The notes under the pieces are model-generated. The model was given only the letters and a program-made list of their open reading frames with translations. It had not been told where the DNA came from and did not search any database. A program made the position numbers and the translations under genes. 64,000 nucleotides of DNA, taken from Eledone cirrhosa. Lineage: Eukaryota. Shown here in pieces: positions 22,660 to 50,723 of the stretch. How positions within the stretch are numbered: position 1 is the first letter of the stretch; each line of letters starts with the position of its first letter. The stretch spans positions 377,580,001-377,644,000 of the forward strand of contig OZ024740.1 of assembly GCA_964016885.1 (NCBI GenBank). Direction: 5' to 3'.

Positions 22660-25063
22660 GTTAAAAGAATAGAGGTGTAACACACAAGTTATTATATATT
22701 GGTAAACGGAATAGAAAATGCTGACAAATTGTTCACAGTTAAAAAATGGTTTAATTAGGAATAAAAGAGTATTAGTGATTGTATGGGTTAGTATTCAGTT
22801 GTGGTTTTAAGTTTTTAAGCTTTTACCGGTTGCGCATTTCTAAATGCTTTTCAAAAATAATTTTGAGATAGAGTGTCCGTGTTGTTTGCTCTGATCTGAT
22901 TAGTTTTGGGAATTCTACCTGTTTTTATGTTAAAAAAGTGGCTCCAGCGTTACTTTGGTGTTGCAAAATTTCTTGTGGTCAAAACAATTTTGATTGGTCG
23001 GTAGAGGTCATGTGAGTGTAAAAAATTGATTTTGCGCCAAGACTGTTTTTATGTTAAAAAAGTGGCTCCAGCAACAATTCTTGTGGTCAAAACAATTTTG
23101 ATTGGTCGGTAGAGGTCATGTGAATAAAAAATTGGTTTTGCGCCAAGATTGAGAAATGACTCTTTCACAACAAATATGTGTGTGTGCGTGTGTGTGTGTG
23201 TGTGTGTGTGTGTGTGTGTGTGTGTGTGTGTGTGTGTGTGTGTGTAGTAGTAGTAGTAGTAGTAGTAGTAGTAAGGTGTTCGATGTTGTGATAATGGTTA
23301 GCAGCGATGTGTGTCAAATGGCTATTGAGATAAGTGTGTGTGTGTGTGTGTGTGTGTGTGTGTGTGTGTGTGTGTGTGTGTGTGTGTGTATAGCAGAGTA
23401 ATTCGTGGTGGCAGGGATGGTCAGTAAGAATGTGTCTGAAAGCAATGGGGGTATTTTAGCATGTCAAAAGATATTTTTCAACTTTTGTCTTATACGGAGA
23501 AGTGTGTGTGTGTGTATATAAGTCTCTTTGTATGTTGATGTACGTGTGTGTATGTGTGTGTGTATATATGTGTGTGTGTGTGGGTGGGTGGACCAGTATT
23601 TTTTTCCCCCTGGTAAAATGGTGTACATTATTCGATTTTTTCAGTAAAATCGGTTCTCTTAATAGAACATCAAAAATCTTAACAATAAAAGATGTGAAAT
23701 GATATTCACTATATATATATATACACATACATATATTCACTATATACATATATATATATATATATACATATATACATATATATACACATATATATGCACA
23801 TATATTTTTTTGTGTTGCACCATAGAGCATGTGTGTTTACGTATGTCATTGTGTTTATATGTGGGTAGAGATGTGTGCTGATGTAGGTATGTATGTTGAC
23901 GTGTGTATGTTGTGGGTTCGTCTTAGGGAGAAGTGTTTAGACGGGGTCCGTATTTGTTAATGAAGTAAGATTCCTTGCTGATGCGCTGGGTGTGGGTGGA
24001 ATTATCTTTAAATTTGTAGAGGGGAAAGATTCTGAAGTTGGGATGATTTTGGGCGGCACAGGTATCAATGTGTTCACTCAGTGGTATTTTCCTGTATTCC
24101 CGTATTTTAATTTGGGATCTGTGGACAGTCATGCGTTGGCGGAGGCTGTTTTTGGTCTGGCCTATGTATTGTTCTCGACAACCTGAACAAGTTAATACAT
24201 ATATTAGATTTTCCGATGCACATGGGAAATTGTGTTTTACTATAAAACGTTGTCCATCTTTGAAATAGAATTTCGAACCCTCTATTAGGTTGATACAAAT
24301 GCCACAGTTGGGTCTATCGCATTTTTTTACTGTGGGTTTCGTTGTTGTGGTTGGCAGTACTTTGGCATGTGTTAAGATGTTTTTCATTGACTTGGATTGT
24401 CTTTTGCTCTTTATGATATCGTGTGTTCGTAGAATTTGGTTCATTCTATGGTCCTTTTTCAATACAGGGATGTTCTGGAGGATGGTGTCAAAGGCCTCAT
24501 TGTTGAGGGGGTTGTGTGTGGAGATGTATGGAAGAGCTTTTAGTTTTGGTTGATTTACTTTAGGGTGTCTAAGGTCCTGGGTACTGAGTTTTAGGGCACG
24601 TTGGATTCTATTCTTGGCGCAAAACCAATTTTTTATTCACATGACCTCTACCGACCAATCAAAATTGTTTTGACCACAAGAATTGTTGCTGGAGCCACTT
24701 TTTTAACATAAAAACAGTCTTGGCGCAAAATCAATTTTTTACACTCACATGACCTCTACCGACCAATCAAAATTGTTTTGACCACAAGAAATTTTGCAAC
24801 ACCAAAGTAACGCTGGAGCCACTTTTTTAACATAAAAACAGGTAGAATTCCCAAAACTAATCAGATCAGAGCAAACAACACGGACACTCTATCTCAAAAT
24901 TATTTTTGAAAAGCATTTAGAAATGCGCAACCGGTAAAAGCTTAAAAACTTAAAACCACAACTGAATACTAACCCATACAATCACTAATACTCTTTTATT
25001 CCTAATTAAACCATTTTTCAACTATGAACAATTTGTCAGCATTTTCTATTCCGTTTACCAATA
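22660..25063 (-). mobile_element. Penelope-like element (third family, Cys-rich linker plus GIY-YIG) with inverted 3' arm
   Basis: ORF 23923-24462 CDRPNCGIC...LIYVLTCSGCREQYIGQTKNSLRQRMTVHR. The 3' region runs to 22660, and 24612-25063 is the reverse complement of 22697-23148. Both outer ends abut (TA)n. Confidence 0.88.
24901..24939 (+). ncRNA. Hammerhead-like motif with variant core UUGAAAA/GCAA (also 22821-22859 -, 41281-41319 -, 50105-50144 +)
   Basis: TTT-TTGAAAA-GCATT(taga)AATGC-GCAA-CCGG-TA-AAA, identical in four arm copies. Confidence 0.55.
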
Positions 25064-25127
25064 TATATATATATATATATATATATATATATATATATAT
25101 ATATATATATATATATATATATATATT

Positions 25128-48279: not shown

Positions 48280-49467
48280 TATATATATTGCCTGTACAGA
48301 TAATCAAAGTGTGTATACATTTTTCGGGGACATCATATATATATATATATATATATATATATATACCGGGGTCCCTAAAAATGTATACACCATTCTAATA
48401 TATATATTGCCCGTACAGGTAATCAGAGTGTGTATACATTTTTCGGGGACACCATATATATATATATATATATATATATATATATATATACCAGGGTCCT
48501 GAAAAATGTATACACAATTCTAATATATATATTGCCTGTACAGGTAATCAAAGTGTGTATACATTTTTCGGGGACACCATATATATATATATATATATAC
48601 CTGAGTCCTGAAAAATGTATACACCATTCTAATATATATATATTGGTTGTACAGAAAATCAAAGTGTGTATACATTTTTTCGGGACACCATATATTTATA
48701 TATATATACTGGGGTCCCTAAAAATGTATACACCATTCTAATATATATATTGCCTGTACAGGTAATCAAATTGTGTATACATTTTTCGGGGACACCATAT
48801 TATATATATATACCTGGGTCCTGAAAAATGTATACACCATTCTAATATATATATTGCCTGTACAGGTAATCAAATTGTGTATACATTTTTCGGGGACACC
48901 ATATATATATATATATATATATATATATATATATATATATATATATATATATATATATATACCTGGGTCCTGAAAAATGTATACACCATTCTAATATATA
49001 TATTGCCTGTACAGGTAATCAAAGTGTGTATACATTTTTCGGGGACACCATATATATATATATATATATATACCGGGGTCCCTAAAAATGTATACACCAT
49101 TCTAATATTTATATTGCCTGTACAGGTAATCAAAGTGTGTATACATTTTTCGGGGACACCATATATATATATACCGGGGTCCCTAAAAATGTATACACCA
49201 TTCTAATATATATATTGTCTGTACAGGTAATCAAAGCGTGTATACATTTTTCGGGGACACCATATATATATATACCGGGGTCCCTAAAAATGTATACACC
49301 ATTCTAATATATATATTGCCTGTACAGGTAATCAAAGTGTGTATACTTTTTTCGGGGACACCATATATATATATACCGGGGTCCCTAAAAATGTATACAC
49401 CATCCTAACAAATAATGCATGTATAGGCAATCAAAGTGGGTATACATTTTTGGGGGGACAACCTGTA
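48280..49467. repeat. Tandem array (about 10.5 units) of an 85-90-bp Tc1/mariner-like mini-MITE separated by variable (TA)n
   Basis: Unit ccggggtccctaaaaatgtatacac...gtgtatacatttttcggggacacc has imperfect terminal inverted repeats and TA flanks. Confidence 0.85.
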
Positions 49468-50723
49468 TATACACAAATATAAACATATATATAGAGAGAA
49501 AGTGTGTGCAAGCAAGCAAGCAAGCAAACATCGAGATCAGAGTTTTAGTAGTATATATATATATATATATATGTGTGTGTGTGTGTGTGTGTGTGTGTGT
49601 GTGTGTGTGTGTGTGTGTGTGTGTGTTCTTACAGAAAAATGTGCAGGCTTCTACATGACCCGGACACATTCTCCCAACTTGTAGAAAACTTATAATGAAA
49701 CAATTGTCAACAGGCTGCGGTTCGCACACACATCCCTGCTAACCATTATCACAACAACGAACACTTTACTACTACTACTACTACACACACACACACACAC
49801 ACACACACACACACACACACACACACACACACACACACACACACACACACACACACACACACACACACACACACATATTTGTTGTGAAAGAGTTATTTCT
49901 CAGTCTTGGCGTAAAATCAATTTTTTACATTCACATGACCTCTACCGACCAATCAAAATTGTTTTGACCACAAGAATTTTTGCAACACGAATTGGCGCAA
50001 AAACCAATTTTAATAGCGTAGGAGCCACTTTTTTAACATAAAAACAGGTAGAATTCCCAAAATTAATCAGATCAGAGCAATTATTTTTCAAAATAATCTC
50101 AAAATTATTTTTGAAAAGCATTTAGAAATGCGCAACCGGTAAAACTTAAAACTAAAACTGAATACTAACCCATACAATTACTAATTCTCATTTATTCCTA
50201 ATTAAACTATTTTTCACTGTGAACAATTTGTCAGCATTTTCTAATATATATATATATATATATATAAGAAGTATACATATATTTTATATATATATATATA
50301 TATATATATATATATATATATATATATATATATGAAAACAGGGAGAAAGAGACGATTATGAGGACCAAAATATATTTTTTTCCTTTTTTTTGTCTCTCTC
50401 TCTCTTTTTTCTGGGTTAGAAAATGATTAAAACGAAATGTTTTACTTTGTGTGAAGTGCTAAGGTATTAGTTGATTTATTTATTATTTAACAATGGCATT
50501 TATTTATCTATTTATATATTTAATTATTGTCTATTACCGGTTTTTGCATTTATATGCATTATCAAATGATAGTGAAATGTATTAGTGTGGTGTCGCACAT
50601 GTTAAACAGAAGGTGCAGAAAGAATAATGTTATATACAAACAAGGTTTAAGAAGTAAAAAGAAAAAAGGAAAATTATTTAAGCTGAAGAAATAAGTAAAT
50701 AGATAGATAGATAGATAGATATA

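Follow-up and report, generated by a model that had tools for sequence, protein, structure and literature searches.

Can a hammerhead ribozyme in which a consensus core adenosine has been replaced still cut its RNA? This question is raised by a 64,000-nucleotide stretch of the Eledone cirrhosa genome (GCA_964016885.1, contig OZ024740.1, positions 377,580,001 to 377,644,000 of the forward strand; called the window, in whose own numbering coordinates are given here), which carries four copies of a hammerhead-like motif with GCAA in place of the usual GAAA. The copies lie in pseudo-long terminal repeats (pLTRs) of a Penelope-like element (PLE), referred to as family A. The in vivo role of PLE hammerheads is debated: their cleavage in vitro is poor, the one system that has been reconstituted can do without them, and it has been proposed that they are mere passengers. 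In the genome studied here, a natural comparison is possible between a lineage with C13 and its abundant sister families with A13. From sequence comparison we consider it likely that this young Neptune-type PLE has a hammerhead which, with A13 changed to C, continues to cleave the element's RNA after A17; such cleavage is probably slow and dependent on dimerisation or on help from a protein.

Results

The motif and its hammerhead features

The 37-nt motif was found at four sites in the window without mismatch and at no further site with up to three mismatches; it was matched in none of 100 shuffled sequences, and no site is expected by chance. Numbered by comparison with the sister families, the copy at 24903-24939 (+) comprises stem I (24903-24905/24937-24939), the U3-A9 box (24906-24912), stem II (24913-24926), G12 (24927), C13 (24928) and a palindromic stem III (24930-24935), with the predicted cut after A17 (24936). 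It lies in the inverted arm of a first insertion, whose 3' pLTR holds a second copy at 22821-22857 (-), with C13 at 22832 and the predicted cut after 22824. The remaining two belong to a second insertion, one in its left arm at 41281-41317 (-) with C13 at 41292, the other in its right, inverted arm at 50108-50144 (+) with C13 at 50133. A first-pass annotation of the window had reported the motif at these four sites and placed the cut after 24936 correctly; its coordinates ran 2-3 nt too long at the 5' end of the motif.

In the core, U3-A8 forms a compensated 3-8 pair, and U4, G5, A6 and A9 are all intact; of the consensus box G12, A13, A14 and A15.1, A13 is replaced by C and the other three are kept. 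Stem II of the subfamily termed A1 has 5 bp and is closed by G10.1-C11.1. U16.1-A17 (UA) precedes the cut, and stem I consists of three A-U pairs that lie outside the predicted minimum-energy fold. An Rfam scan of 22500-25300, in which canonical sister motifs were not scored alongside, gave no hammerhead match at E values up to 10 and returned microsatellite matches only, consistent with the expectation that standard searches would miss the motif.

The element that carries the motif

Full copies elsewhere in the 3.0-Gb genome (L031, L124, L317) are direct repeats of 4.7-4.85 kb in which a pLTR with the motif is followed, after 192 nt, by ORF1, an overlapping 784-aa ORF2 and a microsatellite-rich 3' UTR; in all three, both direct repeats carry the motif 192 nt 5' of ORF1. 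ORF2 matches Pfam RVT_1 and GIY-YIG, the reverse transcriptase (RT) and endonuclease of an EN+ PLE, and a C-x4-C-x2-C linker precedes GIY-YIG. The elements end in (TA)n, and copies terminate 131 or 172 nt past the predicted cut. Linker and target fit a Neptune-type PLE; the linker is also shared with Nematis, and our tree was built without named reference elements. The best 150 matches to the GIY-YIG region reach 97-100% identity, and in many of them ORF2 is open throughout, so the family is young. A candidate diverged subfamily (L032, 86% in a translated search) was ruled out, as its open stretch is 97% identical.

The upstream ORF1, which overlaps ORF2 in family A and in a sister family, C, measures about 435 codons from ATG in family A and has no Pfam match (L124:7127-7133, L250, L249, L317, L320). 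A T TTT TTA heptamer stands at the start of the ORF2 frame in families A, B and C, and in the ORF1 frame in A; it is likely a -1 frameshift site, with no strong fold downstream of it in A. Many short arms start 65-76 nt 5' of the cut, often paired head to head so that their motifs stand 111 nt from each other (e.g. L019, L026), and short arms of family B show the same 5'-end cluster. These are probably run-off copies from the start of the transcript; the matching site in the window, a probable transcription start, is at 24860-24871 (+). Elsewhere in the genome (G000:C2:359513000-359533000; L122, L123) at least five family A units form a tandem array about 3.85 kb apart, each with a C13 motif.

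Sister families place the motif among true hammerheads

Family B, found beside a family A copy in L037, has an ORF2 that is 56% identical and a motif at the same place in the element. The U3-A8 box and CCGG are as in A, together with GAAA; stem II has 4 bp, with a fourth pair G-C where A has U-A, and stem I also has 4 bp, with a third pair C-G where A has U-A. It yielded 12,338 motif matches, with A13 in 100/100 among the matches listed. A pattern that excludes A and B returned 3,048 further matches (control, 4), which represent families C and D; A13 is present in 99/100 among those listed, and C13 in only 11 of the 3,048, three of which are decayed A copies. Family C, with an ORF2 57.5% identical, has the same layout as A; no ORF was linked to the family D motif. 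The U3-A8 box and the CCGG stem III are common to A, B, C and D, at the same element position in B and C, and the stem II pairs of B, C and D differ from those of A yet remain paired. A quick tree left the branching of A, B and C unresolved. Among 86 related loci from metagenomes and metagenome-assembled genomes (MAGs), 18 matched a descriptor left free at position 13; all 18 carry A13 and three have U3-A8.

Because sister hammerheads at the same place have the same core, covarying stems and ordinary GAAA, the family A motif is, by sequence homology, a true hammerhead by descent, of type I and in a PLE pLTR, as the first-pass annotation had proposed. Its proposal that C3-G8 was exchanged for U3-A8 by a compensatory change rather than decay is supported by the presence of this pair in at least three sister families. 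The pair itself is not new: it is in print, with about 1,300 matches among PLE hammerheads of S. mansoni (PMC4209133) and with natural U3-A8 hammerheads reported active (PMC3088659). Since every outgroup has A13, C13 arose on the A branch. By these comparisons A13C is derived, is fixed in one lineage and is the only new feature of the motif, U3-A8 being inherited.

Related sequences were also noted in passing. The window holds a decayed copy of the family B GAAA hammerhead at 3681-3710 (+), and at 6942-6975 (+) a U3-A8, GAAA hammerhead-like match with a 6-nt palindrome, whose stem I has only 2 bp and which may be due to chance; the latter runs antisense inside another GIY-YIG ORF (6363-7085, -). 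Families with canonical C3-G8 hammerheads occur in this genome as well (L022, L118, L219, L222, L305). PLE ORFs found inside bacterial MAG records with symbiont names (L206-L212; P0025, P0057, P0062) are most likely animal host DNA in the bins.

C13 is the family form, with modest signs of constraint

The genome holds at least 10,654 motif copies of the family A lineage, about 99% of them with C13. The 31-nt core of subfamily A1 has 6,168 exact matches, against 44 for the same core with another base at position 13 (10 A, 11 G, 23 T). Subfamilies A2 and A3, which are older and have a smaller loop on stem II, gave 4,136 and 350 matches, with C13 in 99/100 and 96/100, respectively, among those listed. 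With any stem II allowed, only 123 copies of the lineage lack C13, and an upstream anchor retrieved 81 distinct copies, in which position 13 was C in 79, G in one, unreadable in one and A in none. Contigs of four runs showed no alternative letter across the motif; they possibly derive from the same species' DNA and are not counted as cross-species conservation. The possibility that these copies are dead mutants of a canonical family consensus is thus not borne out, GCAA being the family form. The first-pass view of A13 to C, as unusual and perhaps part of a functional variant, stands and gains strength from the junctions described below. The identity of the four arms, which had been taken as a sign of function, is by itself no evidence of selection, with 6,168 exact copies of the core in the genome.

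To avoid circularity, copies for the comparison of motif and flanks were chosen by their flanks only (4,572 matches; 90 of 100 listed places, giving 93 distinct arms), and a column was called variable when the minor base reached at least 10%, that is, at the level of subfamilies. Variable columns numbered 0/31 in the motif and 19/170 in the flanks (p 0.035, one-sided). With A1 added and the anchors counted as flank, the figures were 0/31 and 28/194 (p 0.012), so the motif is less variable between subfamilies than its surroundings, and no core change has spread in any of the three subfamilies. Scattered decay was alike (motif 1.55%, flank 1.83%), as expected for inserted copies under any model. 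We take this as modest evidence that active masters have kept the motif after C13 arose; the test leaves unsaid for what reason.

Rare copy junctions lie at the first base past the predicted cut

Copies in which foreign sequence replaces G-G-U16.1 were collected with an A1-arm pattern, which gave 30 matches, 28 of them true boundaries and 24 distinct. Positions -41, -18, +16 and +72 served as classified controls; +23 was counted but lies outside the junction classification. The density of boundaries at the cut is about 1.5-3 times that at the controls (p 0.006 against the four), an excess that is weak alone. The kind of sequence joined is more telling. Of the 24 distinct junctions in A1 at the cut, 8 link the site to same-strand sequence internal to ORF1 or ORF2, compared with 0/25 at the controls (p 0.0016). 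Such joins were absent from all 46 arms at the inferred start-site cluster and from all 60 arms elsewhere, control loci included. The point within the ORF differs in each of the eight and the downstream point is constant: all are compatible with nucleotide 1.1 as the start, A17 is excluded in four, and in two the start is fixed exactly, without microhomology.

In four insertions (L462, L463/464, L466/467, L580) the junction is present in both arms, and in L474/L475 (G000:C7:55104434-55108422) a 957-nt unit, running from nucleotide 1.1 to the middle of ORF1, is repeated in tandem with the same junction twice. Presence in both arms and tandem repetition imply that the junction was already in the template. 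The older subfamilies, sampled at 30 loci, added two joins (L560, L580); the site pattern used for them (A2) was out of register in copies that have five A and returned mostly decayed motifs. We rejected back-splicing as an origin of the joins, as no AG precedes nucleotide 1.1 and no GT follows the ORF ends that could be located.

Taken together, the junctions suggest an RNA 5' end at the predicted cut, and the joins would most simply stem from an RNA that begins at the hammerhead cut and is circularised by ligation or copied with an end-to-end jump. We found no report of cut-site junctions in PLE copies in the literature covered, which leaves out most subscription journals.

Predicted folding

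In cofolding, stem II and the intermolecular stem III form and stem I does not. Stem III is a six-base self-complementary duplex of -8.3 kcal/mol, the palindrome of a PLE dimer-type hammerhead. In family A the best dimer is more stable than the double-hammerhead form by 15 kcal/mol (-23.9 vs -8.7); the gap is 1.4 kcal/mol for B, 16 for C and 13 for D. A 6-bp upstream hairpin covers U3-A6, in C13 copies as much as in natural A13 copies. With C13 there is also a second self-complementary hexamer (-9.9 vs -2.3 kcal/mol). An upstream hairpin of this 'anti-core' kind was rejected as a general trait of PLE hammerheads, being present in 13/30 motifs with 10.8 expected (p 0.24), not above chance.

The two insertions and their neighbours in the window

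As the first-pass annotation had recognised, the four copies amount to two insertions, each a 3' end with an inverted, 5'-truncated partner, and so to only two events of a young family. The main body of insertion 1 (22660-24611, -) is a 5'-truncated PLE with the end of the RT, the Cys linker, GIY-YIG (E 4e-07), a microsatellite-rich 3' UTR, the pLTR and a tail ending in (TA)n. Its inverted arm (24612-25060, +) comprises the pLTR and the shorter of the two tail ends, and the arms 22693-23148 and 24612-25067 are 100% complementary. Insertion 2, the ends of which are approximate, has a left arm with 3' UTR, pLTR and tail and with flanks of the older-subfamily type (41146-42129, -) and a right, inverted arm (49700-50245, +). 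It is split by a Helitron (42130-49550, -; 5' boundary approximate) that sits in the (TA)n of the insertion and has frames for Rep (Helitron_like_N) and a PIF1 helicase as well as a 69-nt coding repeat and a 101-bp minisatellite. Another element of the RT/GIY-YIG type is marked by inverted 1.3-kb arms at 916-2232 and 12077-13393 that are 98% complementary; a hammerhead scan found no motif in these arms.

Discussion

The case for a hammerhead that still cuts is carried by the position in the pLTR, the homology to GAAA sister hammerheads, the fixation of C13 and the junctions at the first base past the cut. The steps that we infer around these observations (start site, dimer, cleavage chemistry and ligation) would run as follows. 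An RNA would start about 70 nt 5' of the cut, two motifs would pair through the self-complementary stem III, and cleavage of tandem PLE transcripts would leave a 5'-OH end, which could be joined by a host ligase or bridged by an end-to-end jump of the reverse transcriptase. The usual partner would be the cut end of the next hammerhead, by which the intact motif is rebuilt; a rarer partner would be a broken end inside the ORFs, giving the mini-units seen in the genome. Reverse transcription would then start internally, 131 or 172 nt past the cut, with insertion into (TA)n. As cut-to-cut joining would rebuild the motif, the many copies that span the site are no argument against cutting.

The PLE hammerheads of Cervera and De la Peña 2014 (PMC4209133) are likewise of type I, located in the pLTR, closed by G10.1-C11.1 and equipped with a palindromic stem III that needs a partner. 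Further common features are U3-A8, a stem I that is short (2 bp in D. virilis) and opposite-strand pairs 100-700 bp apart. They differ in that all 56 of 56 aligned examples have GAAA (which their descriptor required), whereas family A has C13 fixed across more than 10,000 copies, and in an extra base after A9 that family A lacks. The core variants of Perreault et al. 2011 (PMC3088659) include natural U3-A8, reported active, and rare variants with low but real activity; the accessible text lists U3-A8, A6C, insertions after A6 and 13, and U15.1-A16.1, and names no A13 substitution. Nor did we find a natural A13C or GCAA hammerhead in the literature, most subscription journals being outside our coverage.

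Poseidon PAc of Anolis (Frangieh et al. 2024, PMC11167929) also has its hammerhead in the pLTR, two internal RT-start sites that give the tail (+131 and +172 in family A) and an activity that may need the element's protein; it differs in its C3-G8 core, its single ORF and the absence of cut-site reads, where family A has genomic junctions at the site. With the Neptune-clade PLEs of Craig et al. 2021 (PMC8557442) family A has in common an RT with C-terminal GIY-YIG, a CX2-5CxxC linker, (TA)n as target, pLTRs in tandem and inverted arrangement and a 30-40 bp tail; the upstream ORF1 that overlaps ORF2 at T TTT TTA sets families A and C apart. In animal non-LTR retrozymes, proposed to derive from PLEs, hammerhead-cut RNA is circularised by RtcB and reinserted as tandem copies (PMC7229834; bioRxiv 10.64898/2026.07.22.740005). 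Retrozymes are, however, non-coding units with a hammerhead in each repeat, whereas in the mini-units of family A no hammerhead is left at the junction, and each unit arose once, as a by-product of an autonomous element. RtcB is documented to circularise hammerhead-cut RNAs (PMC7229834), and a PLE hammerhead has been reported to cut only with the element's protein (PMC11167929).

Several observations weigh against cutting. Changes of A13, although milder than those of C3, G5, G8, G12, A14 or A15.1, cost 10-100 fold in activity (PMC4075628, citing earlier mutagenesis), and U3-A8 may add to the cost, since in a type III construct the 3-8 pair was rescued only by a G:C swap (PMC9901934). The folding results, namely the 15 kcal/mol difference in A, the hairpin over U3-A6 and the second hexamer created by C13, argue for a poor ribozyme. 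RNA-seq in Anolis gave no reads that start at the PLE hammerhead cut (PMC11167929). Our own comparisons have their limits: the constraint test is modest and a few of its columns may be alignment artefacts; boundary density at the cut is not significant against the +16 control alone (p 0.17); the junction pattern sampled only starts at or just past A17, positions -1 to -10 not being sampled alike; and ORF joins occur in only about 0.1% of copies. Canonical family B gave no ORF joins in 20 loci of 34 matches, which the model does not predict, and its raw boundary counts show no excess at the site (34 vs 38).

One alternative is a catalytically dead vestige, in which a hammerhead unneeded for retrotransposition allowed A13C to become fixed and the junctions stem from a reverse transcriptase that stalls at the fold and jumps. 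In vitro, mutating the hammerhead left insertion by a PLE protein unaffected, Naiad PLEs have no hammerheads and yet thrive, stem I is weak and the core is masked by a hairpin, and all 18 of the metagenome/MAG matches carry A13; the similar decay of motif and flank also fits, though it is expected after insertion under any model. Stalling and skipping would, however, have to hit the same ORF base twice to give the tandem 957-nt unit, and a stall at the base of stem III should retain A17, which four of the eight junctions lack and none needs. With the added fact that no core change has spread in three subfamilies, we regard a vestige as unlikely.

An RNA end at this site might instead be made by a fold-guided protein nuclease or a minor transcription start, the sequence being kept for promoter activity, protein binding or dimerisation rather than catalysis. 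About 35 nt separate the motif from the inferred start site upstream, so that promoter elements could overlap it, C13 brings a second palindrome, and ORF joins are seen in A and not in B. Against this origin, the end matches the NUH rule of hammerheads to the base, the inferred start-site cluster has no ORF joins, so that ordinary transcript starts do not give rise to them, and all other catalytic positions are kept, which makes it quite improbable. Full tolerance or compensation of C13, with cutting as fast as in the GAAA sisters, would differ from slow cutting only in rate. The family is highly active, with many intact copies of the 784-aa ORF2, and cut-site joins are present; the published cost of A13 changes, the absence of a visible second-site change at core positions and the failure of C13 to spread in other families lead us to give it the smallest chance. 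A slowly cutting hammerhead, helped by dimerisation or protein, therefore stays our preferred reading. The further claim, that the C13 hammerhead with U3-A8 works in vivo and that the genome holds fossil copies of cut, circularised PLE RNAs such as the 957-nt unit, we judge to be evenly balanced between true and false.

Junctions between ORFs and the cut site provide a read-out from DNA alone that is usable for any PLE family. If C13 cuts, the core consensus of the hammerhead gains one tolerated position, and searches based on GAAA miss whole families; if it does not, family A is a highly successful PLE that lost its ribozyme. If the C13 ribozyme works and the mini-units are fossils of circular RNAs, they would document, directly from a genome, the circular RNA step that has long been proposed for Penelope-like retrotransposition.

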